Origin: Chloroflexota bacterium
Lineage (GTDB): Bacteria; Chloroflexota; Limnocylindria; P2-11E
NCBI GenBank assembly: GCA_038040345.1
Contig: JBBPIQ010000002.1
Span: 36,243-100,242, forward strand
Direction of reading: 5' to 3'
Length of the DNA stretch: 64,000 nt
The notes under the pieces are model-generated. The model saw only the letters and a list, made by a program, of their open reading frames with translations. It made no database searches and was not told where the DNA came from. A program made the translations under genes and the position numbers. This document shows, piece by piece, positions 2,307 to 51,463 of this stretch (positions within the stretch are counted from its first letter, which is position 1; every line of letters begins with the position of its first letter).

Positions 2307-2312
2307 GCGGAG

Positions 2313-5090: not shown

Positions 5091-5179
5091 CCTGCTCCAG
5101 CGTCAGAATCGACCCCACGACGAACGGCCACAATCGGCAAACCGGCTAGGGATTAACTACACCATTTGACGGAGGGCGC

Positions 5180-6145: not shown

Positions 6146-6149
6146 CGGC

Positions 6150-9309: not shown

Positions 9310-9311
9310 AC

Positions 9312-11061: not shown

Positions 11062-12630
11062 TCAGGTGGCCTTCGCCCGTTCCCTCTCCGCGAGCTCTCG
11101 GCGAAGTATTTTCCCGGACGCCGTGCGCGGCACCTTGTCGATGAACTCGACCTCGCGCACGCGCTTGTAGTCGGAGATTCGCTCCTTCACGAAAGCGATC
11201 AGCTCGTCCGCCGTCGCCTGCGCGTTCGGGCGAAGCTGCACGAAGGCTTTCGGGATCTCGCCGGCCTCCTCGTTCGCTTTTCCAATGACGCCGGCGTCCG
11301 CGACCGCGGGGTGCTCGCAGAGCACCGCCTCGACCTCCGCCGGCCCGACACCGAAGCCCTTGTACTTGATGAACTCCTTCTTGCGATCGACGATGAAGAC
11401 GTAACCCTTGTCGTCACGCCGGCCGACGTCGCCGGTGTGGAACCAGCCGTCGCGGATGACGTCCGCCGTGTCCTGCGGCTTGTTCCAGTAGCCGCGCATG
11501 ACCTGCGGGCCGCGAACGCAGATCTCGCCGACCTCGCCGTCCGGGAGCGTCTTCGTGCCCGTCTCGAGATCGACGATCTTGTCCTCGGTGCCGGGGACGA
11601 CCGGCCCGATCGACTCGAGCACGGCCGCGTCCATCGGATTGGCGTGCGTCACCGGTGAGGTCTCGGTCAAGCCGTAGCCCTGGATGATCGGCTTCCCGAT
11701 GCGCTGCATCATCCGGCGCGCGGGATCCGGCGCGAGCGGCGCCGCGCCGCTGAAGAAGAAGCGGACTGACGAGAAGTCGTGCTTTTCCACCTCGGGACTC
11801 ATCGCGAGGCCGAGGACGATCGGCGGGACGATGAAGCAGACCGTCGCACGATGGCGCTCCACGAGCGTGCAGTACTCGACCATGTCGAACCGGGGCATGA
11901 TCACCTGCGTTGCTCCAAGGCTGATCGCGCCGGTCATGAGCAGGTTTAGCGCGTAGATATGGAAGTAGGGGAGCACGTTCAGGAAGACATCGTCGCGGCG
12001 CACTGGCACGGCAGCGAAGAACTGCTGCTGGTTTGCAGTGAGGTTCGCGTGCGTGAGCATGACTCCCTTCGGGAATCCGGTGGTGCCGCTCGTGTACGGA
12101 AGCGCGGCGAGGTCGTCCATGGAGACGCGGACCGAAGCAGTCCCCGCTTCCGCAGCGAGATCGTCGAATCGTTCGACCCCGCTCGGGGCCGTCTTGCCGG
12201 TCACCGCGAACACGCGCACCTTTGTGAGGTCCGGACGCACCGCGTCGACGACCAGAGCCAAAGCCTCGTGGTAGAGGACCGCTGTCGCTCCCGAATCGTC
12301 GACCTGAAAGCGGACCTCACGTTCCTTCGACTGGGCGTTGATCGGATTCACGACCCCGCCCACCTTGAGCGTTCCGTAGAAGGCGATCACAAACTCGACG
12401 GAGTTCGGCATGAAGATGGTCACCCGGTCGCCGGCGCGGACACCGCGTTTCGCGAGCGCCGCCGCGAACCGATCGCTGAGCTCATCGATCTCGCGGAAGG
12501 TGACGCTCCGGTCGCCCATGACGAGCGCCGGCTTGTCGCCGACCTCGCGCGCGACCTCGCGCAGGCGGTCCTGCAGAGTGATCTCGCGGTAGGTGAATCC
12601 CGTCGTCGGCTTCGCCGTCGAAATCGCCAT
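11062..12630 (-). CDS. AMP-binding acyl-CoA ligase (4-coumarate/long-chain fatty acid CoA ligase-like)
   Basis: YTSGTTGFPKG, QGYGLTE, GWFHTGD and SGKILRR. Confidence 0.92.
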   Translation of the reverse strand: MAISTAKPTTGFTYREITLQDRLREVAREVGDKPALVMGDRSVTFREIDELSDRFAAALAKRGVRAGDRVTIFMPNSVEFVIAFYGTLKVGGVVNPINAQSKEREVRFQVDDSGATAVLYHEALALVVDAVRPDLTKVRVFAVTGKTAPSGVERFDDLAAEAGTASVRVSMDDLAALPYTSGTTGFPKGVMLTHANLTANQQQFFAAVPVRRDDVFLNVLPYFHIYALNLLMTGAISLGATQVIMPRFDMVEYCTLVERHRATVCFIVPPIVLGLAMSPEVEKHDFSSVRFFFSGAAPLAPDPARRMMQRIGKPIIQGYGLTETSPVTHANPMDAAVLESIGPVVPGTEDKIVDLETGTKTLPDGEVGEICVRGPQVMRGYWNKPQDTADVIRDGWFHTGDVGRRDDKGYVFIVDRKKEFIKYKGFGVGPAEVEAVLCEHPAVADAGVIGKANEEAGEIPKAFVQLRPNAQATADELIAFVKERISDYKRVREVEFIDKVPRTASGKILRRELAERERAKAT

Positions 12631-12701
12631 GGTGTGCCTCCCCGTGCCTTCGCCCAGCGCGATTCTAGGCTCGAAAGAGCGCACGGAACTATCGTTGGGC
12701 C

Positions 12702-13565
12702 GTGATCCCGAGCGCACAATTCGGCAGCACCGGCCACGAGAGCCGGCGGACCATCTTCGGCGCCGCCGCGCTCGGCCAGGTCACCGAGGCGGAGGCGGAC
12801 CGAGCGCTCGAGCTCGTGCTCCGCTACGACCTGAACCACCTCGACACGGCGGCGAGCTACGGCGATTCAGAGCTGCACATCGCGCCGTGGCTCCGGCGCG
12901 AGGGCCGCGACCGTTTCTTCCTCGCGACCAAGACTGGCCAGCGCACCTATGCCGAGGCCCGCGACCAAATCCGCCTGTCGCTTCGCCGGCTGGGCGTCGA
13001 CCACGTGGACCTGCTCCAGCTGCACAACCTCGTCGACCAGAAGGAGTGGGACGTCGCGATGGGGAAGGACGGCGCGCTTCGCGCCGCCGTCGAGGCGCGT
13101 GACGCCGGCCTCACGCGCTTCATTGGCGTCACCGGCCACGGACTCGAGGTCGCGCGGCGGCACCGCGAAAGTCTCGAGCGCTTTCCCTTCGACAGCGTGC
13201 TGTTCCCATACAACGCAACCCAGCTCGCGGGCGAACAATACGCGCGCGACGCCGAGGCGCTTATCGCGCTCTGCGAGAAACGCGGCGTCGCGATCCAGAC
13301 GATCAAGGCGATCACGCTCGGGCCATGGCCGGGCGAGCGTCCCGCGAGACCGACGACGTGGTACGAGCCCCTCACCGACCTGCGCGACATCGATCTCACG
13401 GTGCGGTTCGTCCTTGCTCGCCCGGGGCTTTTCCTCAACACCGCGAGTGATATCGATCTCCTCGCGAAGATCCTGGACGCCGCGGACCGCGGCGGACCGG
13501 CACCGAGCGTGGAAGAACTGAACGACGTGATCCGTCGCCACGAGATGGCGCCGCTCTTCGCATAG
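12702..13565 (+). CDS. Aldo/keto reductase
   Basis: [12 protein letters not shown] and DLLQLH. Confidence 0.9.
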
Positions 13566-13574
13566 CCGGAAACC

Positions 13575-14204
13575 ATGATTCGTCACTACAACGACCTCGC
13601 GGGCCGCCGCCTCGACCGGATCGCCGCGCTGTCCGACGGCGTGTTTGCGATCGCGATGACCCTCATCGTCCTCGAGATACACGTTCCCGATCCGGGACCG
13701 ATCGTCACGGAGCAGGACCTCTGGAACGCGCTGCTCACTCTCGGGCCGCGTCTCGTGACCTACCTCTTGAGCTTTCTAACGCTCGGAATCTTTTGGAACG
13801 CTCAGCAGACGCAGCTCAACCTATTTGCAACTGCCGATCGCGATCTCGCGTGGCTGCAGCTCGCGTTCCTCGCTACCGTAGCGCTGATGCCGTTCTCGAC
13901 TGCGCTTCTCGCGGAGTTCATCACATTCCGCCTCGCGCTCGTCGCGTACTGGGCGAACATCCTCCTGCTCGGCGTGATCGTCTACCTCGCCTTGATCTAC
14001 GCCGAAGGGCACGGCCTCCTGAACAAAGACACAACGGCGGAGATGTCGAGAGTGATCAAGCGGCGGATTGTCGCGGCGCAAGGTCTCTATGCGTTCGGAG
14101 CGCTGCTCTGCTTGATAAACCCGCTCTGGAGCATCGTCTTTATCGTCCTCGTGCAGCTCAACTTCGCGATCGCGCCGAAGATCCCGATCCTCTCGCGGAT
14201 CTAA
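13575..14204 (+). CDS. TMEM175 family potassium channel
   Basis: RIAALSDGVFAIAMTL signature and 6 TM helices. Confidence 0.88.
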   Translation: MIRHYNDLAGRRLDRIAALSDGVFAIAMTLIVLEIHVPDPGPIVTEQDLWNALLTLGPRLVTYLLSFLTLGIFWNAQQTQLNLFATADRDLAWLQLAFLATVALMPFSTALLAEFITFRLALVAYWANILLLGVIVYLALIYAEGHGLLNKDTTAEMSRVIKRRIVAAQGLYAFGALLCLINPLWSIVFIVLVQLNFAIAPKIPILSRI

Positions 14205-15049
14205 CGCGTCTCGAGCGGCTTCTTTCCGTCGGACGGCGGGAAGGATTCGTCCAGCTCCTCGAGGTCGCGTTTCGTGAGCTTGATATCCGCGGCGCCGCGG
14301 TTCTCGTGCACGTGCTTCGGGTCGGCCGCCTTCGGGATCGCAATGACGCCGTCCTCGCGGATCACCCAGGCGAGTGCGATCTGCGCGGGCGTCGCATCGT
14401 GCCGCTCGGCGACGCGCTTCAACACGGGATGCGGGTTGGTGAGAAGCCCTTCCTCGACGGGGGAGTACGCGATCACCGGGCGGTGCCGCTTCCGCATCCA
14501 GGCCACCAGGTCCCATTCGATCGCGCGGCGCTGGAGGTTGTAGAGGACTTGGTCGGTGACGATGCGCTCGAGGCCATCTTTGAGTCGCGCCAGCTCCTCC
14601 ATGTCGTCGACGTCGAAGTTGCTCACTCCCGCGTAGCGGATCTTTTTCGCCTCGAGGAGATCGTCGAAACCGGCGAGCGTTTCTTTCACAGGCACGTCGC
14701 TGGGCCAGTGCAGCAGGTAGAGGTCGATCTGCTCGATGTCGAGCCGCCGGAGGCTGCGATCGCACGCCGCGGCCATACGCTCGCGAGTCGCGTTCTGTGG
14801 ATAGAACTTGGTGACGACGAACACCTGGTCGCGGCGGCCGGCGATGGCCTCACCCACGACGCGCTCCGCGCCGCCATTCGCGTACATCTCCGCCGTGTCG
14901 ATGAGCGTCATCCCGAGCTCGATGCCCGTGCGTAACGCGGCGACTTCGCTGTCTCGTTTGCTCTTGTCGTCGCCCATGCGCCACGTGCCCTGGCCGAGAA
15001 CGGGCACCGTCTCGCCGCCGGGGAGCTTGGTGAAACGAATTCGCGTCAC
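14201..15049 (-). CDS. Aldo/keto reductase (YeaE-like)
   Basis: GQGTW, IDTAEMY, DLYLLHW and AIPKA. Confidence 0.92.
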   Translation of the reverse strand: MTRIRFTKLPGGETVPVLGQGTWRMGDDKSKRDSEVAALRTGIELGMTLIDTAEMYANGGAERVVGEAIAGRRDQVFVVTKFYPQNATRERMAAACDRSLRRLDIEQIDLYLLHWPSDVPVKETLAGFDDLLEAKKIRYAGVSNFDVDDMEELARLKDGLERIVTDQVLYNLQRRAIEWDLVAWMRKRHRPVIAYSPVEEGLLTNPHPVLKRVAERHDATPAQIALAWVIREDGVIAIPKAADPKHVHENRGAADIKLTKRDLEELDESFPPSDGKKPLETR

Positions 15050-15077
15050 GGGTCGAACGTCCGCATGAGCTGTGCCG

Positions 15078-15707
15078 CTACGACCTCCGGCGTGTTCCCA
15101 TCAGGTAATAGAAGAACCCGCCGATCAACAAGATCGGCAGCAGGCTAAGGACGATCGGCCCGACGACTCCGATCGGCTGCGTTCCCTGCTCGTACCTGAG
15201 CGCGATCGCCTGCGATGGATTCGCCGCGTTGTAGTTCGCAACAGCCGGCGCAAGGGCCGTGTCGGGCTGCGGCAGCGTCGTCTGTTCTTTGTGCGTGGGG
15301 CTGTCCCTGAACTCCATGGTCGCCGTGCTTCCAGTCACGGTCACTGCTCGGACGCCTCCCGCGTTGATGTCCCGGATCGCCTGAGCCACGCCGACCTGCG
15401 GTACCGACGGTGCCTGCGAGCGGTACGCGTAAAGCAGCCCGAGTCCGAGGAAGACCAGAAGCAGCGCGAGCGCCCCAACTCGCACGATCGCAAGACCGGG
15501 TGCGGAGACTCGTGTCGGTAGGGGTCGCGGCATCGCGAACATGCCCGACTCGCGGAATCCGCCACAGCGGCACGCGGCTCCGCCGACCTCGCGGTAACAG
15601 GGTCGCTCGACGGGCGGGTCAGATCCAAGACGAGCGCGTTCGGCGTCGCGGTCGTGCCAGTCGCGCGTGTGACCGCATGTCTCGCAGATCGCTCGCGGGT
15701 CGAACAC
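15078..15707 (-). CDS. FtsH N-terminal (TM-extracellular-TM) domain protein with a Cys/His-rich N-terminus
   Basis: QAIRDINAGGVRAVTVTG...LLPILLIGGFFYYLM resembles the FtsH extracellular domain and TM2; N-terminal CxxCxH...C...CxC; no AAA domain. Confidence 0.65.
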   Translation of the reverse strand: MFDPRAICETCGHTRDWHDRDAERARLGSDPPVERPCYREVGGAACRCGGFRESGMFAMPRPLPTRVSAPGLAIVRVGALALLLVFLGLGLLYAYRSQAPSVPQVGVAQAIRDINAGGVRAVTVTGSTATMEFRDSPTHKEQTTLPQPDTALAPAVANYNAANPSQAIALRYEQGTQPIGVVGPIVLSLLPILLIGGFFYYLMGTRRRS

Positions 15708-40371: not shown

Positions 40372-41340
40372 ATGAGGGCGGTAGTCCACGACAGATACGG
40401 GCCGCCGGACGTCTTGCGTCTCGAAGAGGTCGAGCGGCCGGTACCCAAGGACGACGAAGTCCTCGTCAAGATCTACGCCACCACTGTCAACCGGACAGAC
40501 TGCGGCATGCGCAGCGCGGAACCGTTCATCGTTCGCTTCTTCGCCGGCCTCCGGCGACCCAAGCGAAGGATCCTCGGCATGGAGCTGGCTGGCGAGGTCG
40601 AGGCAGTCGGCGCAGCCGTCACCGAGTTCGCGGTCGGTGACCACGTCTTCGGCGTCAAGGGGTTCGGCGCACACGCGGAGTTCGTCCGCATGCGGGAGAG
40701 CGCCCCGCTGGCGCATAAGCCGATCGGCATGAGCTTCGAAGAGGCGGCAGCGGTCTGCGACGGAGCGAGCCTCGCATTGGCGTGCCTCCGAAAGGCAGAT
40801 CTTCGGAAGGGGCGGAGCATCCTCATCTACGGGGCCTCTGGATCCGTCGGAACCGCAGGGGTGCAGCTGGCCAAGTACTTCGGTGCCGACGTTACTGCGG
40901 TGTGCAGCACGAAAAACCTCGAGCTCCTGAGATCGCTCGGAGCCGACAGGGTCGTCGACTACACGCAGGAAGACTTCACCAAGAACGGCAAGACCTACGA
41001 CGTCATCTTCGACGCGGTCGGCAAGCACTCGTTCAGGCGCTGCAGGCGCTCCCTGAAGCCGGGCGGGATCTACATCGAAACCGACCTGGGGTTCATGTGG
41101 CACGTTCCGCTACTGGCCTTGTTGACCAGGTGGATCGGAGACAAGAAGGTGAAGGTCGGGATAACTCAATACACGAAAAAGGACGTCCTCTTCCTGAAAG
41201 AGCTCATCGAGGCTGGCAAATACCGAGCGGTCATCGATCGGACCTACCCGTTGGAGCAAGTGGTCGAGGCGACGACGTACGTCGAAACGGGGCAGAAGAC
41301 GGGCAACGTCGTCCTGACACTTGGAGTAGCGAGAGGGTAG
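40372..41340 (+). CDS. NAD(P)-dependent MDR oxidoreductase (quinone reductase/RTN4IP-like)
   Basis: YGPPDVL, GMELAGEV, YGASGSVG, VIDRTYPL and GNVVL. Confidence 0.9.
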   Translation: MRAVVHDRYGPPDVLRLEEVERPVPKDDEVLVKIYATTVNRTDCGMRSAEPFIVRFFAGLRRPKRRILGMELAGEVEAVGAAVTEFAVGDHVFGVKGFGAHAEFVRMRESAPLAHKPIGMSFEEAAAVCDGASLALACLRKADLRKGRSILIYGASGSVGTAGVQLAKYFGADVTAVCSTKNLELLRSLGADRVVDYTQEDFTKNGKTYDVIFDAVGKHSFRRCRRSLKPGGIYIETDLGFMWHVPLLALLTRWIGDKKVKVGITQYTKKDVLFLKELIEAGKYRAVIDRTYPLEQVVEATTYVETGQKTGNVVLTLGVARG

Positions 41341-41406
41341 ATGTCTGTGAGTTCTAGTTCGGAGTGTCCCGGGCGGGTAATCATCGGTGTTTCCCGTGTC
41401 GCACAG

Positions 41407-41524
41407 GTGTTAGGGGAGTCAGGTGAGCTTCCGAGGAATCAGGTGAGGTTCCCGAAAATCGCAAAACCGCGTTTCGATCAATAGCGATGCGGGTCCGTGC
41501 TGGGGAGGGTGGATTCGAACCACC
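41407..41524 (+). repeat. 118-bp direct repeat of 49903-50020 (integrase-proximal flank plus 27 bp of the tRNA-Gln 3' end); relic att junction
   Basis: Constant offset of 8496 bp with 7 mismatches by manual alignment; includes TGCTGGGGAGGGTGGATTCGAACCACC at 41498-41524. Confidence 0.92.
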
Positions 41525-41692
41525 TTTGTCGGGGCAAGCTGTATTCGGAGATCCGTGTTCATCTTTCGCGCAGGCGAGCAATTCGTCCGACGCGACTCGC
41601 GCGTCAATTGCCGTACGCCGCGATGCGATAACGTCCGCCTCGTGGCCGGCGGCACGGCCGAGGCCCGATAGACGAAGGAGTGTGGCGCTGAC

Positions 41693-42097
41693 ATGACACG
41701 AGCGGGACCGGTCGCTGAGTTGATTGCGAAGACGCCCGATTGGCGCGGCCCGATGCTGGCGAAGCTCCGCAAGATCGTCCACGACGCGGACCCCGAGATT
41801 GCGGAGGATGTGAAGTGGAAGCGGCCCAGCAACCCACTGGGCTCGGCCGTCTGGTCGCACGACGGGATGGTGTGTGTCGGGATCATCCTCAAGGAGCGGG
41901 TGAGGCTCTCGTTCTCCGCGGGCTCAAGCCTTCCGGACCCGAAGAAGCTCTTCAACGCGCAGCTCTTGGGCAAGTCGCGGGCGATCGATGTCTCTCAGAA
42001 CGAGAAGCTCGATGAACAGGCACTCAAGGCGATCGTGAAGGCCGCCGTCGGGCACAATCTCGCGAAGACGCGAGCGCGATCGCGAAGCACGAAGTAG
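41693..42097 (+). CDS. DUF1801 (YdhG-like) domain protein
   Basis: DWRG...ADPEIAEDVKW...VWSHDG...LPDPKKLFNA...RAID. Confidence 0.88.
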   Translation: MTRAGPVAELIAKTPDWRGPMLAKLRKIVHDADPEIAEDVKWKRPSNPLGSAVWSHDGMVCVGIILKERVRLSFSAGSSLPDPKKLFNAQLLGKSRAIDVSQNEKLDEQALKAIVKAAVGHNLAKTRARSRSTK

Positions 42098-42184
42098 TAC
42101 CGGGCGCGGCATTCGACGTGATGCCGCATCGCATCCCTGAAGAACCATGTGGCCGCCAGTTCGATCTGGCCCTCTGGCACAGAG

Positions 42185-42853
42185 TCAGCGCTTAGGCGGG
42201 AATAGCTTCCAGTGCCCCTCAGAGATCACTTCGACTTTTCCGTCGACCACCTTGATGGCGGTCTCATCGTCGATCCCATACGTCGGCACCGGTACGCCGG
42301 CCGCCCACGCTTCTACGTTGGCCAGGGAGTTGTCCGGCATGGACGGGTGATCCAGGTGCACACCCAACGCGAAGTCGACCAGTGCCAGCGCTCTGTAACC
42401 CGCAGTCGGGCGATCGTTGTAGGTCTCTCCGAAGCTGGGCGTCACTGCCATACTCCCGGCGCTCACCCCCACATAGACCATCTCGCGCCGCAGCGATGGC
42501 AGCAGGTCCGCGAATCCGGACTGCCGCATCCAGTCGCAGAGATACATAGGGTCGCCGCCTCCGACCAGTAGGGCGTCGACCTCACGGACCAGAGGGATCC
42601 AGTTCTCTTTCTCGACGCTGGGCAGTGCAGTGAGCTCCAGGACCCCGAGCGATTTCCAACCGATTTCGCACAGGGGACCTCGGGCCGTTCCGCTGATGAG
42701 CCGGTAGGCGATCGCAGGTCCTTGGGAGAAGTAGTACGCCGCAGTGGGAATGACCAGGGCGCTGCATTCAGCGATCGGTCTGCCCAGCAGCTCGACCAGC
42801 GCGTTTCGGATGCTCGGATTGGTGATGCCCGCGGAAGTCAGAAGAAACCTCAT
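42185..42853 (-). CDS. Peptidase S51 (peptidase E/type 1 glutamine amidotransferase-like)
   Basis: LTSAG, IPTA, GGGD, GVSAGS, VHLDH and IDDETA. Confidence 0.88.
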   Translation of the reverse strand: MRFLLTSAGITNPSIRNALVELLGRPIAECSALVIPTAAYYFSQGPAIAYRLISGTARGPLCEIGWKSLGVLELTALPSVEKENWIPLVREVDALLVGGGDPMYLCDWMRQSGFADLLPSLRREMVYVGVSAGSMAVTPSFGETYNDRPTAGYRALALVDFALGVHLDHPSMPDNSLANVEAWAAGVPVPTYGIDDETAIKVVDGKVEVISEGHWKLFPPKR

Positions 42854-43147
42854 GATCCCTCCCGGCGAAGCGACGAGTTACCGTGGCGTTCATGAGACGA
42901 CGCTGAAGTCATTGTGAGTTCACTTGGATCACCGCGGGTCGCGAGCTCGCTAGCGTCTCCGGAATTCTGAAACGCAGGTTGGTGGGCGAGCCTGACTACG
43001 AATCAGGTGCTCTCGGAGTCAGGTGACTTTCGATGCCGCGCGACGCCGACATCCACGGCAAAGACGCGACTCGCGGCGATTACCTGATTTCCGATCAGGT
43101 GCCTTGTCGCTTCAGTGAGCTCAGAGAAACGCGAAATCATTGGGATC

Positions 43148-43196
43148 TGCTGGGGAGGGTGGATTCGAACCACCGATTACCTGATCCAGAGTCAGG
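43148..43196 (+). repeat. att site: 49-bp exact copy of the tRNA-Gln 3' half (49994-50042)
   Basis: TGCTGGGGAGGGTGGATTCGAACCACCGATTACCTGATCCAGAGTCAGG occurs at both positions; identity ends just past the anticodon stem. Confidence 0.95.
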
Positions 43197-43402
43197 TAAC
43201 GAAAATCTCGCGGTCAGTCACGAGTTCTGGCGCAAATTCAAGAAATGCGGGGAGCGGGGCCGCTTCCTGGCGTAGAGAATCAGGTGAGCTTCCCGAAGAG
43301 AAGTAATCCGATGGTTCGTGCGCGATCATCTCGACCTGCGTCAAAGGCACTCGTCTAAATAGGCGTCAAACAGGTCAGGGCTTCAAGTGCTGGACCTTGC
43401 CG

Positions 43403-44800
43403 CTAGGGGAGTGGAGTCCCGATGCTTGTCCAATGGACACCGCCGTCGACAGTCCGCTGGGTGAACCCGCGCACGGTCGCGTATCCGGTCGATGCGCTCG
43501 CGAAGATCATCAGTGGAGCGACGCCCGCAGCCTGTGAGTAATCGGATGCGAACGGATGCCAGCTGCTACCGCTATCGGTGGTTTCCAGCGAACTGTCCGC
43601 GAGCGCTATCTGAAGCCAACGCGATGCGGTGACGAAGGCGAACGCACCCGCGCGCGTGACCTCCACGACAAAGTTCCAGGACTTTCCTGCATCTACCGAA
43701 CGGAAGACGTAGAGGTGCGCGTGTTCGCCGATCTGGCCGTACGCCTGCACCAAGAGCGTCGAACCGATAGCGTGGACCGCTCCGGCTTGGAGCGTCACCC
43801 CGGCGCCCACAGTCGTGAAGCCGGGTGGATCTGGAAGCGGTTGCGAGCCCGTCCACGTTCTGCCGCCATCTGTCGTGCGGTAGATGACCGGCGCGTGATT
43901 GGCGTCCCGGCCCGAAATGTAGCCGTGCGTTCGGTCGGCGAAGACGAGCCCGGCTTTGCATTGATCGTCGAGTCCGCTCGATGTGATCTGCTGCCAGGAA
44001 ACACCTGCGTCGACCGTGTGGAATACGAGGACGTTCTGGAAGGTGCACTGCGTCGCCGCGGGACCGTTCAACGTCAGCCATCCTTCGCGATCGTCGACGA
44101 ACGCTATCTCCGGATTCACGAGCGGCCGCGCTGGAAGTGGTTGCTCCGTCCAGTGGTCGCCGCGATCGACAGAGCGGAACAGGTGCGTTCCCGCGACGAT
44201 CGCCCAGAGGGCGCTCGTCGACGTCGGCGCGAGCTGCACAAATGTCGGGAGCGCGATGGGCGTCGGTGAGGCGCCAGGTGTATTGCTCGTGGGGGCGGTA
44301 ACACCATCGCGACATCCGCTGTCCGCTAGCGGAACCGTGATCAGGCGACCGTCGAGGAGAGTCGTTTCGACGCGGTATGAGGCGGCCTCGCTCTCGAACC
44401 TGCGCTCGAGCGCCGCGTCGATTGCCACCCACGTCGAGCTGTGCAGAGCGCTCGCTCGGACACGGTTCACGCAGGTGTCCGGGCCGAAGATTCCGGAGCC
44501 CGCGATCGGGAGCGCAACCACGAGGCCCCCGTCCGCGCTAAGGATCCGAAAACCCATCGCGGTTCCGTCATAAAAGAGCTCGAGAGCGAATGGCTGCGGG
44601 GCTCCGGCGAGTCCATCGACCGCCCATTCGACGCGCGATGGAGTCTGATCGGGAGTGGGCTTAGCGGGCGGGGAGGGGAGAGGCTCGGTGGGCGTGGGCG
44701 CCGTCGGGCTCTGGGCGGGCGCGGCAGCCGGAGGAACACAGCCGGCAAGAGTCGTCGCCAGACCGAATAGGGCGGTGATCACGATGGGCTGCAGCCGCAT
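43403..44800 (-). CDS. Lipoprotein with BNR/Asp-box beta-propeller (YCF48/sialidase-like)
   Basis: Lipobox LAGC, Pro-rich linker and six S/T-x-D-x-G-x-x-W repeats. Confidence 0.8.
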   Translation of the reverse strand: MRLQPIVITALFGLATTLAGCVPPAAAPAQSPTAPTPTEPLPSPPAKPTPDQTPSRVEWAVDGLAGAPQPFALELFYDGTAMGFRILSADGGLVVALPIAGSGIFGPDTCVNRVRASALHSSTWVAIDAALERRFESEAASYRVETTLLDGRLITVPLADSGCRDGVTAPTSNTPGASPTPIALPTFVQLAPTSTSALWAIVAGTHLFRSVDRGDHWTEQPLPARPLVNPEIAFVDDREGWLTLNGPAATQCTFQNVLVFHTVDAGVSWQQITSSGLDDQCKAGLVFADRTHGYISGRDANHAPVIYRTTDGGRTWTGSQPLPDPPGFTTVGAGVTLQAGAVHAIGSTLLVQAYGQIGEHAHLYVFRSVDAGKSWNFVVEVTRAGAFAFVTASRWLQIALADSSLETTDSGSSWHPFASDYSQAAGVAPLMIFASASTGYATVRGFTQRTVDGGVHWTSIGTPLP

Positions 44801-45084
44801 CAGGACGAGAATCCCTCGGAAGGCCGTCGTCCGTCGTCCGAGTTGCGCACGTTAACTCGTACGGCCTCCCGCAGCGGACGGCGCCGCGGTCCCGCGCCAC
44901 CGAATAGCGCCTGTGGACAGCCAGGCGGAGAAGATCGTGGAGAGGAGGGGTTCACGCTCAACAGGAAGGGCCACGATTAGTGCCTGAAACGAACGAATGG
45001 CAAGATCAGACGAGCGGAGGCGGAGAACCACATGAACTACTGGAACCGTCGCGAACCACCGCGACCTGAGACGGCATAGACGCC

Positions 45085-46293
45085 ATGGCAGAACCCGGCT
45101 TCGAAACCAGGCGACTGCGAAGCGCCGACGAGCCTCTGGCGAACTTCCTCGAGGCTTTTCTGCGCCGGACGAGCATCGGTGATAAGACTCGCTACGACTA
45201 CGGGCGGCTGCTCCATGAGTTCGATGACTTCACCGATCATCCCAGCCTGCGAGACGGGCTCACCGACGCCCTCGCGACACAGTGGATTGAAACGCTCAAA
45301 GATCGCGGAGCCTTTGCCGCTCGTAATGGCGCGATGTACCTCAAGTCGTTTGCTACCTGGGCCGCTCGAAGGGGCTACTTAGCAACCGCGACAGGCGTCG
45401 GCGTCCTAGATCACTTCAAAGCGCCGCCGATCACGAAGCGGGTGCGTCGCGCGTACACCGAGCGGGAGCTCATTGCGATCTGGAAGGCCTTAGCGACGAG
45501 TCCCAAGGGTGAACGCAATCGCGCGATCGCGCTGCTGAGAGTCCTTCTCGCGACCGGCATACGACGAGACGCCGCTCGGACCTTACCGCGCCAAGACGTC
45601 GAGATCGATCCCACCCGAAACCGGGGGTCGATCACGGTCCGCGTCAAGAGCGCGCGAGGCGTCACCGATCGAAGAATCCCGCTCGACGTCGAAACCGCTG
45701 CGGCTCTTCGGGCCTATCTTGCCGACGACAAACGGCCAACGTGGGTAGGGCCTGCCCTCGAACCGCTCTTCCTGAGCAAAGATGGACAGCGTTTCACGAC
45801 GAATGGTTTTGGCAGTTGGATGGAACGGCTAGGCGAAGAGATCGAGAGCGCGACTGGAATTCAGTGGACTGCAGAAGCCATGCGGTACACGTCCAAAGAA
45901 GAGTCGAAAGCCCTTATCCACGATGCCGATCTGCGGGAGAAGTGCGGGGCCATGCTCGATACGAACAAGAGGCACGATCAAACCATCTGGGCGGCGTGCA
46001 AGGTCTTGGAACTCCGCGTGCGCAAGATCGTCGGTGCTCCTCGCGGAAAGTCGGGCGTGCCACTCATGAGGTTCGCCTTCGCGGATGAGCCGATTCGGCT
46101 TCGTCTGTCGGACGACGACAAGCTGCAACGCGCAGCAGCGGAGATGTTCACCGGACTAATGTCGTACTACCGGAACCCCGCCACTCATGAAGTGTTCGCG
46201 GACCTCAGCCAGCGCGGCGTGAGAGAAATCGTCGGTTGGGTCGATCATTTGCTGACGCTGGTCGGACAAGCCGATCGTGCGTCAACTGGTTAA
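45085..46293 (+). CDS. Degenerate tyrosine recombinase fused to a TIGR02391/Ymh (HEPN-like) domain
   Basis: Colinear with 48921-49895 (LKSFATW, YT, G-R, PLFL, F...GF...M-RLG). HxxR is replaced by EAMR and the segment with the catalytic Tyr is absent. The C-terminus has ACKVLELRVR...GVPLMRFAF...YRNPATH. Confidence 0.78.
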   Translation: MAEPGFETRRLRSADEPLANFLEAFLRRTSIGDKTRYDYGRLLHEFDDFTDHPSLRDGLTDALATQWIETLKDRGAFAARNGAMYLKSFATWAARRGYLATATGVGVLDHFKAPPITKRVRRAYTERELIAIWKALATSPKGERNRAIALLRVLLATGIRRDAARTLPRQDVEIDPTRNRGSITVRVKSARGVTDRRIPLDVETAAALRAYLADDKRPTWVGPALEPLFLSKDGQRFTTNGFGSWMERLGEEIESATGIQWTAEAMRYTSKEESKALIHDADLREKCGAMLDTNKRHDQTIWAACKVLELRVRKIVGAPRGKSGVPLMRFAFADEPIRLRLSDDDKLQRAAAEMFTGLMSYYRNPATHEVFADLSQRGVREIVGWVDHLLTLVGQADRASTG

Positions 46294-46463
46294 CGCCTCA
46301 GCCCGACGCCGCTCCAAAGGCGACAGCAGACTGACCGGGTGAGAAGGCAGCTCGATGACGCCCGCAGGTGGCCCGCTCGATCGGCGCTTCGGAGTTACGG
46401 TCGCGCGCTAAGCCGATCCTGGTTCATCGCGGCGGAACGCGATACCTGTTACGAATCAGGTCG

Positions 46464-46754
46464 TTACAGAATTCGGAACTGCTTGCGCCCAGGAGGAAAT
46501 AGGACCGTGTAATCCTCGCCCCCGACTTCGCGGTAGGCCGCTGCAAAGTCAGCGGCAACGAGCGGCTTGAGACGGTCAAACGCACGAAGCGGGTCATCGG
46601 TCAAAACGAAGATGTTCATCTCACCGCCTCCGAGGTCGTGGCCGTCGACGACACCGGCGTCCCCAAGCAAGCTTTCGGCCTGTTCCTCAAGAGCGACGAG
46701 GTCATCGAAGTCGCTTGAGGCGGCGGGCGTCTGGAGCACTAACTGGTATTTCAT
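46464..46754 (-). CDS. Conserved small acidic protein (96 aa)
   Basis: MKYQLVLQ...VDGHDLGGGEMNIFVLTDDP...AAYR...VLFPPG. Confidence 0.75.
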   Translation of the reverse strand: MKYQLVLQTPAASSDFDDLVALEEQAESLLGDAGVVDGHDLGGGEMNIFVLTDDPLRAFDRLKPLVAADFAAAYREVGGEDYTVLFPPGRKQFRIL

Positions 46755-46936
46755 TGACTGGACTGTTGCACGGGCGACAAGGCTCGAGTGCGAACCCTCG
46801 GATGTGAGTACCGACGGTTGACCTGATTGCAGATCAGGAGACGACACAGAGTCTCGGATACCTGGCGGATCGTGACCGAGCTCGTAATCGTTAGGGTTCG
46901 GCAACTCAGACGCGCTAAAGACGAACCGCGACGAGA

Positions 46937-48370
46937 ATGGATCGCATGAACCCGAGGCGCGCTCTGAAGCGGGCGGGTTTGCGTGTCGCCTGCGAACCCA
47001 GACGCCCCGAGAACCCTGGCTCCGGCGCTCAACGGGCGCGGCGGGCCGTCCTGACGCTGACCCTGACCGGGCTGCTTTTCGGTGCGTGCGAAGCCGCGCC
47101 CCTGCCTTCCCCATCGCCTGCCGCCCCGTTGGCTCGCGCCCAGGTCGAGCGGCTGTGGATTGATGACCCGAGTTACTTCGTACTACAGCCGGATGAGATG
47201 GTCGTTGACGGAGACCGCGAAATCGTCGTCGGAGTCGACTTCTCGCAGACACCTCGTCACGACGAGATCGAAGGCCGGCTTCGCGCCGGCGCGCCAAGCG
47301 GAAGCGTCATCGAGTGGCTGACCGACCGGCGCGTAACAATGCGCGTTCCTGCTGGTGGGCCATTCGACATCGATCTCAGCTCGGCCGAGCCGGCTCCTCA
47401 ATCAACAGTTCGGCTGTCGACCTCGCTAAGGTTCCACATCGACAGGCCGACCTTCGAGGTCGCGCTCTACCGTCCGAAGGACGTTCTCGCGGGATCGCTC
47501 GCACCAGTGCGGTCGTGGATCGTGCACCTGGCTCTTCAGCACATTTTGTCGTTCGCCGCCGACGGCCATCGCGCACTCGTCTACCACGGACTAACGCCCC
47601 GACGCACGGACTTCTCCATCCTCGACCTCGACAGCGGACAGAAGAGCACGCTCGCCGAACCGTTCATGCAGATGGCGAAGAACGGAACCTCATTAATGGA
47701 CTGGCTCCCAGACGGTCGTCTTCTCGGCGTCGCGCATGCCACCTCGGTTACCGGCGACACCGACGGGCAGCACCCCCTGGAGCTCCCGGGTCTCGTCGGT
47801 CAAGGCGCCGTGCTGTCGCCTTCGGGCCATCTCGTCGCGCTCTGGAGTTACGCGGAGGGCACCGCGGCGATCCTCGATCTCGCGAGCGGGAACCTCCGGC
47901 TCTTGCCAGGTACCTTCCCGCGCTGCACCGTCGGAGGCATCGTGGCGCTTTCCTGGATCGACGACGACCAGTTAGTTATCAGCGACTGCACCGCCGATCT
48001 CGGAGGCACGCCGCGGACGCGTGTGCTAAGCGCGCGCACCGGCGCAACTATCCAGACCCGCTTGGGCGACCAACTCGTGGCGATCCTCGCCGGGGGCGTT
48101 GAGTGGCGCACTCGCGCCGAGCCGGCTCAGACGATGAGCTCGCCACAGGTGGCCGCGTGGCTCGCCGACCCAACGGGGAAGGTCCTCGCAACGCTCGTCA
48201 CAGGGGTGCGCTATCTACCGGCCCCGGACGGGACTGCGCTCGCGTATGCGAATGGCGACGGGCAACACTCAGTGATCATTGACCCAGCGACCGGCCGCCA
48301 GCGCGAGGTCGCGGGCGAAGCGATGACATGGACGAAGCAGGGCGAACTCGTGGTAATCCGCCGACCGTGA
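46937..48370 (+). CDS. Lipoprotein with a TolB/WD40-like beta-propeller
   Basis: TM helix plus lipobox FGAC; repeats FAADG, WLPDG, LSPSG and PAPDG; start uncertain. Confidence 0.7.
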   Translation: MDRMNPRRALKRAGLRVACEPRRPENPGSGAQRARRAVLTLTLTGLLFGACEAAPLPSPSPAAPLARAQVERLWIDDPSYFVLQPDEMVVDGDREIVVGVDFSQTPRHDEIEGRLRAGAPSGSVIEWLTDRRVTMRVPAGGPFDIDLSSAEPAPQSTVRLSTSLRFHIDRPTFEVALYRPKDVLAGSLAPVRSWIVHLALQHILSFAADGHRALVYHGLTPRRTDFSILDLDSGQKSTLAEPFMQMAKNGTSLMDWLPDGRLLGVAHATSVTGDTDGQHPLELPGLVGQGAVLSPSGHLVALWSYAEGTAAILDLASGNLRLLPGTFPRCTVGGIVALSWIDDDQLVISDCTADLGGTPRTRVLSARTGATIQTRLGDQLVAILAGGVEWRTRAEPAQTMSSPQVAAWLADPTGKVLATLVTGVRYLPAPDGTALAYANGDGQHSVIIDPATGRQREVAGEAMTWTKQGELVVIRRP

Positions 48371-48524
48371 CTGAGGTCGTGAGAGGCTTTATGCGATGCG
48401 CGCGTTGCTCCTTCTTGTGCTCGGGCGAGGGTTTCGGCTGCAGACCTGATTCGTAGTCAGGTGCAAAGACAACGTACTTCTCCCGCCGGCAACGTGGCCA
48501 AACGCACGTCCTACTCGGCGACCG

Positions 48525-48570
48525 AGTGTTCTCCGAAGAGAACACTTGGAGAACACGCCATGAGAACACT
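48525..48570. promoter_or_regulatory. Operator-like GAGAACAC repeat cluster upstream of the integrase
   Basis: Inverted repeat AGTGTTCTC-CGAA-GAGAACACT plus further GAGAACAC copies at 48549 and 48562. Confidence 0.5.
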
Positions 48571-48920
48571 TTGAGTGGAGTAGTCACGGTCGGACTTCAG
48601 TTCTTCTCGAAGGATTACGCCATTTCACTGTGGGGCGAAGACAACGGCTACATAGCGCGATCGACACATGTTCCCACGCGATATTCGTCAACTCGTCGCA
48701 AGGTCCGGTCGCAGATGGTCGTGATGTCTCGTTTCGCGCCGCTTCCGTTCCCAACAATCCGTAGATTTCCCGACGGCCTGCTGCCCGCCGGGAAGGAACA
48801 ACATGACCGGCGAACGAACCTTAACAACACAACAGCGACCATTGCGGTGGGCGGAGATGCGTGACGAGCACACGCCCCTTCTAGACTGCGAACGGCCCCG
48901 CTCCCCGCAAGGGAGAGGAA

Positions 48921-49895
48921 ATGTCTCGCACCTTTACAGCTTCATGGGAATCTCTCGTGCGCGGTAAGGACAGCAATCTCGGCGACGTCATCGAAAGCTT
49001 CCTTCTCGCAAAGGAGGCAGAGGGCCGCTCCAAGCGGACCCTTCAGGACTACCAGACCTATCTCCGCGAGTTCGACCGCGTCACTGGCGGCCCGACCCTC
49101 GCGCGGCTCACTCCCGAAGTGGTCACGAGATATATCGCCGAACGACGACGCTCGTCACCGGCCGCCGCTCGCTACGCCGCCGCGATCCTCAAGAGCTTCG
49201 CGACATGGCTCGCGGAAATGAAGTACCTCGCGACGCCGATTGGCGGATCCGTTCTCGCGACCGTCAAAGTGCCGCGCGTCGACCGCCCCCGCAACCCGTA
49301 CACCGATCAAGAAGTTCGCACGATGATTCGTGTGCTCGGCGCGAGCAGCCAGCGCACCCGCGCTCGCGATTCAGCCGCGATCCTCACGTTACTCGGCAGC
49401 GGGCTCCGACTGAACGAGCTACGCGAGCTAGGACTTCCGAACGTGCACATCGCACGGCCGATCGAGGAGAGCTACGTCCTCGTGGCCGCCGAGACGAGCA
49501 AGAGCCGGAGCACGCGAAAAGTCAGACTCGATCCGATGGCCGCCGAGGCCATTCACAAATACATGAAGGACTGGCGACCCGACCGCGCACACGATGGACC
49601 GCTGTTTCTCACCGAAGAGGGCAAGCCATTCAGCCTCTCCGGTTTCAAGAACTACATGGCTCGACTCGGCGATCGCTTCGAAGAAGCGGGCATCGCGAAC
49701 TGGATGGCCCATCGCTCGCGTCACTACTGGGCGACGAGCGCGCACCGCGCCGGCATGAGCGTGTTCGACATCGCCGTCGAAGGCGGCTGGCGCGATCTCA
49801 AGATGGTTCAGCGATACACCAAGAGCCGCCCGTTCGAGGAGCTGCAGCGTCTGCCGACGCCGCTCTCGTTCGTGCTCCAAAAACGGGCTTCCTAA
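48921..49895 (+). CDS. Tyrosine recombinase/integrase (XerC/D-like, no arm-binding domain)
   Basis: N-terminal SAM-like core-binding domain; catalytic R (GLRLNE), K (SKS), HRSR, GW and Y (VQRYT); SD GGGAGAGG. Confidence 0.95.
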   Translation: MSRTFTASWESLVRGKDSNLGDVIESFLLAKEAEGRSKRTLQDYQTYLREFDRVTGGPTLARLTPEVVTRYIAERRRSSPAAARYAAAILKSFATWLAEMKYLATPIGGSVLATVKVPRVDRPRNPYTDQEVRTMIRVLGASSQRTRARDSAAILTLLGSGLRLNELRELGLPNVHIARPIEESYVLVAAETSKSRSTRKVRLDPMAAEAIHKYMKDWRPDRAHDGPLFLTEEGKPFSLSGFKNYMARLGDRFEEAGIANWMAHRSRHYWATSAHRAGMSVFDIAVEGGWRDLKMVQRYTKSRPFEELQRLPTPLSFVLQKRAS

Positions 49896-49910
49896 GAATC
49901 AAGTGTCAGG

Positions 49911-49950
49911 GGAGTCAGGTGAGCTTCCCAGGAATCAGGTGAGGTTCCCG
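49911..49950 (+). repeat. Tandem 20-bp direct repeats GGARTCAGGTGAGSTTCCCR (further copies at 41415, 41435, 43276 and a degenerate one at 43015)
   Basis: GGAGTCAGGTGAGCTTCCCA followed by GGAATCAGGTGAGGTTCCCG. Confidence 0.88.
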
Positions 49951-49995
49951 AAAATGGCAAAACCGCGTTTCGATCAATAGCGACGTGGGTTCTTG

Positions 49996-50067
49996 CTGGG
50001 GAGGGTGGATTCGAACCACCGATTACCTGATCCAGAGTCAGGAGCCTTACCGCTTGGCCACTCCCCA
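49996..50067 (-). tRNA. tRNA-Gln(CTG)
   Basis: TGGGGAGTGGCCAAGCGGTAAGGCTCCTGACTCTGGATCAGGTAATCGGTGGTTCGAATCCACCCTCCCCAG folds as a cloverleaf with a U1-A72 pair and CTG anticodon; CCA is not encoded. Confidence 0.96.
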
Positions 50068-50081
50068 ATGGAGCACGTGAA

Positions 50082-50492
50082 TTATCCCATCCGAGGCCTC
50101 GCGCGGAGCGACGAGACCAATGTGACGAGCAGCAGTGGCTCGATCACGAGCGCGAAGAGGATCCCGCCGCCGAGGCTGATGATCCCGGTGAGCTCCATGA
50201 GCAGGGCGAGAGTGATGAGCCACACACGCGGCCGGGAGTTGAGCCATACACCGATGACGGCGAGTAAAGGCGCGAGCGACCACATGACTATCCACAGCAG
50301 CGGGGCGGGAAAGAGATCATTGCCCTGGATCTCGATGAGGCTCGAGCTGCGGCAGACCTGCGGCCCCGGACTCTGACCAGATGCGACCGCCGTGGTCGTG
50401 CATCCGTAGAAGAACGGTCCGAACAGGACGCCCCAGCCGAGGATGACGCCGGCCGCGAGAGCGAGCAATGACGCGATCCGCGCGATCCGCAT
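50082..50492 (-). CDS. Small membrane protein
   Basis: About 4 hydrophobic helices and a Cys pair in the loop. Confidence 0.6.
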   Translation of the reverse strand: MRIARIASLLALAAGVILGWGVLFGPFFYGCTTTAVASGQSPGPQVCRSSSLIEIQGNDLFPAPLLWIVMWSLAPLLAVIGVWLNSRPRVWLITLALLMELTGIISLGGGILFALVIEPLLLVTLVSSLRARPRMG

Positions 50493-50530
50493 GCGGGGAC
50501 CCTAGATCGGGATCGCCGCGATGCAAGTCG

Positions 50531-51463
50531 TCAGGCGATGAGCGCCTGAGGCGGCCGGTCGTCCTGGTGGCGCCGTGCACGCGGAGACATTTTCTTCGAT
50601 GCGATGCGGCCACCTGACTTGAGCTCGACCTTGCACCACACGTCATCCACGAGCGCTTCGAAAGTGAAGCGACCCTGGTGCCGACCTTCCAGGGTCGCTA
50701 CGACGTGGTCGGGGGCACGAAGGACGAGCGCGACTTGCGCGCCTTCCTTGAGCGTGTCGATGGCGTGGGCGCTGATCGCGATGACGCTCTCGTGCTCGTT
50801 CATGATCCTGATCTGAGAGGGCACGATGCCCGCGCTCTCGAAACGGAGCCAGGTGAGCATGTTCTCCTCGAAGACGCGCCACATGAGCGGCACGACGAGG
50901 TCCTCGCCCGTCGGCAGCACCGCAGGCTCATCGGTGGTCGTCCCGTTCTCATTCCCAAGCGCACGCGAGAATTCGCCGATCTTCATTCGCGCCTCGTAGA
51001 GCTGACGCTCGAGGTGGTGCTGACGGCGCTTGACGCGATGCTCATTCGCTTCCGCAGTCGCCCGTGCGTCCTGTGCGCGCTGCAGCGCGTCGCGAAGGTT
51101 CGCGACATCGTTCACCGCCCACTCGAACTGGCGGATGACCATGGCCACGCGCTGATCGGCTTCGGCCTTGAGCTCGTCGGTTACCGATGCGAGCGTTCTC
51201 GCGGCGATGTGCCGATTAAGACGCGTCGTGAGCAGCGAGAGCCCGGCGCCGGCGGCGAGGCCAACGACGATCCCCGCAAGGAGACCGCGAGCGGCGCCGT
51301 CGACGAATGGAATGAGGACGACACAGAGCGCAAGTGGTGCGACCCACGGCAGGTACCGCTTCGTTCGCACGTGCGGCCGAGCCGTGTGGCGCAGAGCGGC
51401 CTTCGAATGCGCGTCACAGAGGGCGCATTCGTGGCCGAGCCGATGTTGCATGGGTCCGTTCAC
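50531..51463 (-). CDS. Hypothetical protein with two TM helices, a coiled coil and a C-terminal beta domain
   Basis: SD GGGAGG 7 nt before GTG 51463; protein-like composition. Confidence 0.65.
   Translation of the reverse strand: MNGPMQHRLGHECALCDAHSKAALRHTARPHVRTKRYLPWVAPLALCVVLIPFVDGAARGLLAGIVVGLAAGAGLSLLTTRLNRHIAARTLASVTDELKAEADQRVAMVIRQFEWAVNDVANLRDALQRAQDARATAEANEHRVKRRQHHLERQLYEARMKIGEFSRALGNENGTTTDEPAVLPTGEDLVVPLMWRVFEENMLTWLRFESAGIVPSQIRIMNEHESVIAISAHAIDTLKEGAQVALVLRAPDHVVATLEGRHQGRFTFEALVDDVWCKVELKSGGRIASKKMSPRARRHQDDRPPQALIA

Follow-up and report, generated by a model that had tools for sequence, protein, structure and literature searches.

A tyrosine-recombinase-derived module joined to a Ymh-family HEPN domain in a tRNA-Gln island of a Chloroflexota bacterium: a candidate DNA-sensing effector of mobile elements

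A stretch of 64,000 nucleotides (nt) from a Chloroflexota bacterium (contig JBBPIQ010000002.1 of assembly GCA_038040345.1, positions 36,243 to 100,242; in the following called the window) contains an integrative island of 6.85 kb which is bounded by a perfect 49-bp direct repeat at a tRNA-Gln gene. Besides a tyrosine integrase of its own the island carries a gene for a protein of 402 amino acids (aa), whose open reading frame (ORF) was confirmed in the 64-kb window and whose N-terminal part resembles a tyrosine recombinase. The C-terminal part belongs to the Ymh family of HEPN domains, a class known for ribonucleases (RNases). The comparisons described below support a composition of a tyrosine-recombinase-derived module without the catalytic residues and a Ymh/HEPN domain with an apparently intact RNase-type motif. 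The parts of this fusion gene and the other features of the island are listed in Table 1.

Table 1 The fusion gene and the features of the island at tRNA-Gln (positions in the window)
Feature	Position	Strand	Basis
Fusion gene: recombinase-derived module and Ymh/HEPN domain	45085..46293	+	ORF; Pfam PF00589, PF09509; AF2 model
N-terminal SAM-like core-binding domain (about residues 15-97)	45127..45375	+	weak PF02899; model helices H18-95; alignment to core-binding domain of the integrase
Shortened recombinase catalytic domain (residues 125-267), ending at the EAMR remnant of HxxR	45457..45885	+	PF00589; Foldseek
E264-A-M-R267 at the HxxR position; His lost, Arg II retained	45874..45885	+	alignments
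Ymh-family HEPN domain (residues 282-392)	45928..46260	+	PF09509; domain model; VIA-align
E309-L-R-V-R313, E-x3-R motif in HEPN helix 2	46009..46023	+	family alignment; 110 Ymh proteins; motif as in the accessible part of PMC3710099
R363-N-P-A-T-H368, HEPN R-x4-H motif at the end of helix 3	46171..46188	+	family alignment; domain model
attL, 49-bp direct repeat, copy of the tRNA-Gln 3' half	43148..43196		100% identical repeat pair
attR, 49-bp direct repeat within tRNA-Gln(CTG) (49995-50067, minus)	49994..50042		repeat and tRNA gene
Tyrosine integrase of the island, 324 aa, with HxxR, W and Y all present	48921..49895	+	PF00589 E 1.5e-20, profile positions 6-169 of 172
BNR-repeat protein, island cargo	43403-44800	-	BNR/Sortilin-type repeats, Pfam E 1.6e-10 to 9e-6
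ORF read as a 96-aa gene	46464-46754	-	
477-aa ORF without Pfam match	46937-48370	+	
CCTGA-N7-TCAGG just outside attL	42991..43007		
CCTGA-N7-TCAGG inside a decayed tRNA-like fragment (75% identical to 50020-50055)	43083..43099		
CCTGA-N7-TCAGG between the divergent 96-aa and 477-aa ORFs	46822..46838		
CCTGA-N7-TCAGG upstream of the integrase gene	48445..48461		

The recombinase-like part is recognised by PF00589 (Phage_integrase) over residues 125-264 with an E-value of 1.7e-7 and 31.6 bits against a cut-off of 27.1. Of the 172 profile positions this match spans no more than 4-130, so the catalytic domain is without its C-terminal quarter. A weak match to the SAM-like core-binding family PF02899 covers residues 19-97 (E 0.072), and the NCBIfam models of XerC, XerD and XerA align with residues 16-269 (E 1e-11 to 1e-12) at scores far below their cut-offs. 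In a BLASTP comparison with the integrase of the island, residues 11-268 pair with its residues 13-268 at 33% identity over 261 columns (E 1e-30), which bears out the original prediction, made from the letters of the window alone, that about the first 270 residues of the two proteins are colinear. Here AEAMRY of the fusion protein lies opposite AHRSRH of the integrase. As had been read, the HxxR box has turned into EAMR, and the segment carrying His/Trp III and the catalytic Tyr of recombinases is replaced by the HEPN domain, whose RNPATH motif lies exactly at the coordinates proposed.

The C-terminal domain had been taken for a Ymh or HEPN-like domain, and this classification holds. PF09509 (Hypoth_Ymh) matches residues 282-392 with an E-value of 4.6e-12 and 46.3 bits, the cut-off being 25, and the domain alone scores 49.9 bits. 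Of the three profile models which the original prediction had named, PF00589 and PF09509 are thus above their cut-offs, whereas TIGR02391 of NCBIfam (E 2.2e-7, profile positions 4-100 of 125) remains below it with 31 bits versus 39.45. Judged by its sequence, the domain is a relative of the TIGR02391 model that ranks under the curated cut-off. Ymh is listed as a HEPN family in the accessible part of the survey by Anantharaman et al. (2013; PMC3710099), where HEPN domains are described as ending helix 3 in an Rx4-6H motif, whose R is mostly followed by N, D or H, and as having an acidic residue in helix 2, usually within E-x3-[KR], and an insert between helices 2 and 3. According to model and alignment all of these features are present in the C-terminal domain of the fusion protein. 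Its last 131 residues, modelled alone (pLDDT 91.8), form helices at domain residues 10-22, 26-45, 53-61, 74-97 and 105-124, of which 53-61 together with a strand makes up the insert. R363-N364-x3-H368 is located at the end of helix 74-97 and E309-x3-R313 inside helix 26-45.

In structural comparisons with VIA-align the top matches of this domain model are HEPN domains with Z values from 9.2 to 7, a range which according to the note of the tool can be reached by chance for helical bundles. At their head is 2hsb (Z 9.2, root-mean-square deviation 3.1, 108 residues aligned), followed by the HEPN domain of sacsin (Z 9.1), 1ufb (Z 8.3), the HEPN toxin SO_3166 (Z 8.2) and the HEPN toxin of a HEPN-MNT pair (Z 7.5); further matches are RnlA, AbiA, HepS, LsoA, MtlR, Las1 and Csm6. 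HEPN entries nonetheless recur consistently in this ranking.

The fusion is not confined to the window. A word-index search yielded five more 90%-identity clusters (376-420 aa, 47-88% identity), all with PF09509, and a profile search covering 1.84 billion 50%-identity representatives added six full-length members (P0011-P0016) and the truncated P0017, P0018 and P0020. Altogether the full-length relatives span 33-88% identity. A metagenome scan revealed full-length or near full-length copies in the loci L011/L012, L013, L017/L018 and L022; the genes of L011 and L012 are the same over 1359/1359 nt and those of L017 and L018 over 1258/1258 nt, so that five distinct DNA loci are available, the window included. 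The junction is common to all members and lies directly after the Arg of the former HxxR box.

Sixteen rows of the fusion family were compared with nine rows of neighbouring integrases. His II, the His of HxxR, is found in 0/16 fusions and in 9/9 integrases. Arg I is R in 10/16 fusions (the rest being K, K, K, G, Q and E), Arg II is kept in 13/16 and the hairpin Lys in 2/16, in a variable hairpin with uncertain alignment, each of these residues being present in 9/9 integrases. The segment of His/Trp III and the Tyr nucleophile is absent from all fusions. With His II, His/Trp III and Tyr missing and with Arg I and Arg II as well as the hairpin Lys variable within the family, the fusion protein cannot, as far as these residues tell, perform active recombination by the known mechanism. 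The HEPN residues E309, R311, R313, R363, N364 and H368 are conserved in 14/14 complete members, and the residues of E-x3-R and R-N-x3-H are near-invariant across 110 Ymh proteins. Mean pairwise identity amounts to 45.7% for residues 15-270 and to 50.8% for residues 280-395 (66 pairs from 12 members). Because both halves are similarly conserved while the recombinase catalytic residues drift, the recombinase-derived half appears to be maintained, though not for catalysis.

The family is rare. Among 401 genomes sampled across the phylum it was found only in the window's own genome (G000), and not in the other 400. The genomes of 60 relatives, including the unpublished G010 and G026 with integrase-type matches only, gave integrase-type or Ymh-only matches instead of the fusion when searched with this query (1/61, again G000 itself). 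A peptide-pattern scan of genome contigs with a single strict pattern produced 15 matches and 0 confirmed cases. With tblastn 3/50,697 phage and 3/72,556 plasmid records match, each with one half of the protein and none covering 80% of the query. In the ESM Atlas no cluster of at least 50 members has the fusion architecture, the nearest large clusters being ordinary integrases; by its design this search is not evidence of novelty.

A non-functional one-off chimera, which the original prediction had considered as a possible refutation, was rejected, since a conserved family of full-length open frames exists. Likewise, it is hardly credible that the protein is a non-functional chimera generated by deletion or rearrangement in an integrase gene. 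The lost recombinase residues, the rarity of the family and the occurrence of frameshifted or internally deleted copies would fit such an origin; against it speak full-length open frames at 33-88% identity in at least 12 clusters, all with the same junction, together with the similar conservation of both halves and the invariant residues of the HEPN motif.

Among the 110 Ymh proteins nearest to the fusion PF00589 is matched only by 8 rows, all of the fusion family. The rest have no Pfam family besides PF09509 at E <= 0.001, apart from DnaJ_CXXCXGXG and Cation_efflux in single members. The Ymh profile search yielded 4104 representatives at E <= 0.001, a number which includes matches to the integrase half alone, and a word-index query with the HEPN part returned just 4 proteins, all of the fusion family, from which no census of architectures can be drawn. 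As a side observation, contig C1 of G000 encodes a second Ymh/HEPN protein of 356 aa (L003, 808-1878, plus strand; PF09509 E 4.5e-21) with the motif RNPTGH. Its N-terminal 230 aa are without Pfam family, it shows weak PADLOC matches to Aga_HEPN (5.6e-5) and PD-Lambda-3_B (7.4e-4), and its convergent neighbour of 326 aa (1879-2859, minus strand) belongs to no family.

Concerning the origin of the recombinase part, the fusion shares 33-40% identity with Xer/phage-type integrases. A quick maximum-likelihood tree was calculated from the N-terminal halves of 54 rows, namely sequences in which 180 or more residues align with residues 15-270, complemented by P0007-P0010 and the island's integrase. 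In this tree all true fusions fall within one well-supported clade of 22 rows, alongside the integrases P0028 and P0007/8/9/19/23 and three fragments; the branching inside this clade, as far as the quick tree resolves it, speaks neither for nor against a single origin of the fusion. The island's integrase pairs with P0024 in a different clade. Because of these separate clades and of the 33% identity, the fusion appears to be a distant paralogue of the island's integrase and not a recent duplicate. The relationship claimed in the original prediction is therefore real, but it is not a close one.

The full-length AF2 model (pLDDT 94.0, pTM 0.83) has its best matches in the PDB among DNA-bound tyrosine recombinases, i.e. 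the Tn1549 integrase (E 3.8e-8), lambda Int, XerA/XerH and Cre in a Foldseek search. The phage repressor SroF bound to DNA (9rd5_H) is found at rank 33 (E 1.9e-4). When the HEPN domain was modelled as a homodimer, a symmetric complex was predicted which is formed via helices 3 and 4 and reaches an ipSAE of 0.76, compared with 0.00 for the best of 3 controls, although it may reflect likeness to solved HEPN dimers. In the calibration of this score 20/30 proteins whose solved structures are pairs of one chain passed the mark, as did 1/23 with single-chain structures. Contact agreement between the dimer runs was >=91% and the pLDDT of the partner >=82. Domain residues 93, 95, 96 and 99, beside the motif, belong to the predicted interface, and the prediction supports a pairing of HEPN domains with each other. 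In the accessible literature HEPN RNases are described as generally needing two motifs, as in the dimerisation of RnlA or the paired motifs of Las1, and an activation of ApeA is described too.

With a confidence slightly better than even we take the fusion protein for an effector that serves defence, exclusion or addiction by means of RNA cleavage under the control of a DNA-binding module. In such a single-chain effector the Ymh-family HEPN ribonuclease would be the output domain, and the DNA-binding body of the integrase, made up of the core-binding domain and of a catalytic domain whose first three quarters are left, would be the input or regulatory domain. The integrase-derived module would bind DNA, most simply at inverted-repeat sites of the integrase core type, and the binding would control the pairing of two HEPN domains. 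Their R-N-x3-H motifs would thereby come together in an RNase site where the two domains meet. The protein as a whole is cargo of small integrative islands. That the scaffold still binds DNA is presumed because the catalytically dead integrase-fold repressors MrpR and SroF do so, and RNA cleavage by paired HEPN domains is presumed by analogy as well. The DNA ligand, and whether DNA would switch the RNase on or off, belong to the inferred part of the model.

In tyrosine recombinases the C-terminal segment which is replaced here reaches across to the neighbouring protomer. For this reason a DNA-templated assembly could pair the HEPN domains. A more special version, which we regard as doubtful, would be a DNA-site-activated RNase: two exapted integrase bodies assembling on an inverted-repeat recombination site would pair their HEPN domains and thereby switch on RNA cleavage. 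Such a site may be the att or core site of an element that arrives or excises, or the assembly may take place on a recombination intermediate.

The genomic surroundings of the fusion genes, that of the window included, show the hallmarks of mobile elements at 4/5 loci and defence genes at 1/5. The latter is L011/L012, where the fusion gene is situated in an island of about 15 kb at a tRNA-Val gene, bounded by a 20-nt repeat (98-117 and 15334-15353). A gene for a type IV restriction enzyme of the Mrr type (8731-9654, minus strand; PADLOC mREase_IV, E 8e-87) is convergent with the fusion gene and separated from it by a gap of 12 nt. An ATPase of the same island (4777-6366, minus strand) matches the AriA, Old and GajA models and gives a weak OLD-type TOPRIM match, which at a Pfam E-value of 0.0031 falls short of the curated cut-off; the island also encodes a protein with an NrS-1-type primase-polymerase domain (11669-13120) and a large serine recombinase (13944-15377). 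Within L011 1-15462, three tRNA-like fragments (1632-1671, 3104-3143 and 3205-3244) were noticed inside larger direct repeats.

The L022 copy (438-1252) begins 68 nt after a tRNA-Cys gene; an internal deletion joins its first 166 aa to its last 105 aa, and its motif reads RG..H, with RG replacing RN. At L017 (983-2229, corresponding to L018 951-2197) a frameshift occurs just before the R-N-x3-H motif, the remainder being readable in another frame, and the copy adjoins a fragment resembling the N-terminus of a serine recombinase as well as a phosphoribosyltransferase gene. L013 (1.9 kb) holds an intact copy of 382 aa with a flank too short to judge. In a scan of the neighbouring genes of the window, L011 and L017, which took in part of the small ORFs, no nucleotidyltransferase family was detected that would make up a HEPN-MNT pair.

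Since no neighbour is conserved across the loci, the fusion protein probably works alone. A solitary gene on integrative islands, with no conserved neighbouring partner in 5 loci, would also be compatible with a fused addiction module resembling a toxin-antitoxin pair, in which the recombinase part inhibits the HEPN RNase in cis until loss or excision of the island, or a changed state of the bound DNA, frees the toxin, so that the island is stabilised. The monomer model, which packs the halves in one confident arrangement (pTM 0.83), could be understood in this sense, and broken copies, which are common for toxins, are found at 2/5 loci. On the other hand the protein is a single stable polypeptide without an obvious labile antitoxin and its toxicity is itself an inference; we consider this explanation rather improbable.

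The palindromic sites of the window, to which the original prediction had linked the fusion protein, are related to the tRNA-Gln gene. The pattern CCTGA-N(5-9)-TCAGG occurs 6 times in 64 kb (0.23 expected), always with N7 and always within 42991-50042, and two of these six palindromes are the att cores; the others are given in Table 1. Half-sites of the form GA[AG]TCAGGTG are present 8 times versus 0.49 expected. The 49-bp repeat ends in CCTGATCCAGAGTCAGG, which is the anticodon stem-loop of tRNA-Gln, and the integrase gene adjoins the intact tRNA gene. The palindromes are real and represent copies of the core of the island's own att site in the tRNA-Gln anticodon stem. The proposed link is not general: CCTGA-N7-TCAGG was not found at the other fusion loci, only in loci identical to the window, and the short inverted repeats near the L011 and L017 genes include nothing comparable. 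The idea that the fusion protein reads att-type sites of its own island is weakened because fusion and integrase belong to separate clades, because the palindromes were not found elsewhere and because one relative shares its island with a serine recombinase. These observations do not touch the general idea that the input is a DNA-binding module derived from a recombinase.

The same sites have to be discussed for another, in our view unlikely, function, namely that of an integrase-fold DNA-binding regulator. The protein would then serve as a repressor or as a directionality factor, or it would block related elements by occupying att or core sites in a dominant-negative manner, and the HEPN domain would mainly be a module for dimerisation or for the binding of RNA or nucleotides. 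There is a precedent of a dead tyrosine-recombinase fold as repressor in SroF (accessible part of bioRxiv 10.1101/2025.11.27.690993), whose DNA complex 9rd5_H is among the Foldseek matches; the L011 island integrates by a serine recombinase, as SPbeta does; the palindromes at 46822 and 48445 are in promoter-like intergenic positions; and a stable HEPN dimer, as predicted, would suit a dimeric repressor. Pure dimerisation, however, would not require that six residues of the HEPN active-site type are kept in 14/14 members while the recombinase residues drift. Moreover, the palindromes were not found at other fusion loci, and the island's own integrase from the other clade is the simpler binder, since the palindromes copy its att core.

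Returning to the effector with a DNA-controlled HEPN output, a number of points weigh against it. Broken copies are present at 2/5 distinct DNA loci (L017/L018 and L022). Recognisable defence genes lie beside 1/5 loci only, and the island of the window carries two predicted lipoproteins instead. As the island palindromes were not found near other fusions, no common DNA ligand is known. A comparison with PADLOC-DB 2.0 gave 0 families at E <= 0.1 for the fusion of the window and 0 at E <= 0.01 for the L011 protein. The HEPN domain searched against the PDB by Foldseek has no match at E <= 0.001, the best one being 1ufb (E 0.41), itself a HEPN protein, and its VIA-align scores are in the range attainable by chance. 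In the accessible parts of the literature searched no tested function was found for any Ymh member (PF09509 or TIGR02391), and some proteins of the HEPN fold, e.g. MtlR, are regulators and not RNases according to the accessible text of PMC3710099. The most probable role of the fusion protein is nevertheless that of a toxin or defence effector which belongs to mobile elements and senses DNA.

Some observations on the island itself are added here. The ORFs 43403-44800 (minus strand) and 46937-48370 (plus strand) have, by eye, lipoprotein-like N-termini with a Cys after a hydrophobic stretch. A promoter scan of 44700-47000 returned 0 sigma-70-like sites, with a consensus that may not apply to this host. 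An exact inverted pair of 18 nt, CCTGACTACGAATCAGGT and its reverse complement, is located at 42991-43008, outside the 49-bp repeat of the island, and at 48444-48461, inside it and upstream of the integrase; it might serve as a second recombination site, as an inversion substrate or as an operator. In addition, 41390-41497 repeats almost unchanged the roughly 100 bp which precede the tRNA inside the island (49885-49993, with the paired half-sites GAGTCAGGTG and GAATCAGGTG). This belongs to a third att-like junction at 41390-41525, where the tRNA-Gln 3' end, of which about the first 27 nt are present, comes after the repeated 100 bp or so and the similarity then breaks off. Taken with the decayed arm and tRNA fragment at 42975-43112, the junction suggests repeated and partly deleted insertions at tRNA-Gln.

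The region 41000-51000 of the window is present without differences in four permafrost-metagenome runs of one study (X1-X4), 3 of which are possibly the source of the window. Among the Logan contigs of X2 one contig of 6857 nt equals the island between the repeats, with a depth of 42.3 compared with 42.6 and 41 in the flanks. In the four runs the island was at flank depth and no joints were seen; the contigs break at the 49-bp repeat, so an excised form could not show.

One of the main classes of toxins and immune effectors is formed by HEPN RNases, which are told apart by the sensor that controls them. If the proposed function is true, a dead-recombinase sensor would add the recognition of specific DNA sequences or structures to the HEPN triggers. 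Following the repressors of the SPbeta type, it would provide an independent second example of a tyrosine-recombinase fold which has been preserved for DNA binding alone. Should the DNA-site-activated form apply, foreign or activated recombination sites would be an immune trigger, and for the first time the scaffold of a site-specific recombinase would have been turned into the sensor of an effector for abortive infection or exclusion. If activation is DNA-templated, a possible tool for coupling the recognition of a DNA site to RNA cleavage could result. The Ymh family is widespread, and a fusion with a clear and separable input domain offers a convenient entry to its study.

Among known proteins the members of the Ymh family are the closest to the output domain. 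In the accessible part of PMC3710099 they are characterised by the conserved Rx4-6H motif and by the remark 'in operon with R-M' (restriction-modification), and paraMORC ATPases, AbiJ-NTD1/2 and AbiTii are listed as fusions. The protein described here agrees with them in the PF09509 score above the gathering threshold, in R-N-x3-H and E-x3-R, and in the C-terminal position of the domain behind a variable N-terminal module; one relative, L011, also lies beside a restriction gene, as noted there for the family. It differs in its N-terminal module, the word 'recombinase' being nowhere in the accessible text and 'integrase' only in the reference list.

As to the input domain, the fusion has its SAM-like core-binding domain and the beginning of its catalytic domain in common with Xer/phage-type tyrosine integrases, among them that of the island and those of the nearest lineage P0007/8/9/19/23; unlike them it is without His II, His/Trp III and Tyr, and Arg I and Arg II vary in its family, as does the hairpin Lys. 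MrpR (YopR) and SroF are, according to the accessible sources, integrase-fold master repressors of SPbeta-like phages, and SroF binds DNA via its integrase-like fold (bioRxiv 10.1101/2025.11.27.690993). With the fusion they have in common a tyrosine-recombinase fold after the loss of recombination on a mobile element where a serine recombinase can integrate, a likeness drawn from fold and abstracts and not from sequence; their DNA binding is known, whereas that of the fusion is presumed. They retain the whole recombinase fold and have no effector domain, while in the fusion HEPN replaces the last catalytic part.

The sensor-HEPN immune RNases, such as RnlA/LsoA, HepS, ApeA, the C-terminal domain of AbiA and the CARF-HEPN proteins Csm6/Csx1, resemble the fusion in having a HEPN output with Rx4-6H behind a sensing module and in acting as dimers, the dimer of the fusion being a predicted one. 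Their sensors, in contrast, are CARF, NRD, phage-protein-binding or nucleotide-binding modules, and a recombinase-derived DNA-binding sensor on HEPN was not found in the accessible parts of the literature searched. The combination of recombinase and HEPN was equally not found there or in the accessible text of the 2013 HEPN census, whose supplementary architecture lists could contain it. Sensor-HEPN effectors and dead-recombinase DNA binders are each known, and what appears to be new is their combination in one protein.

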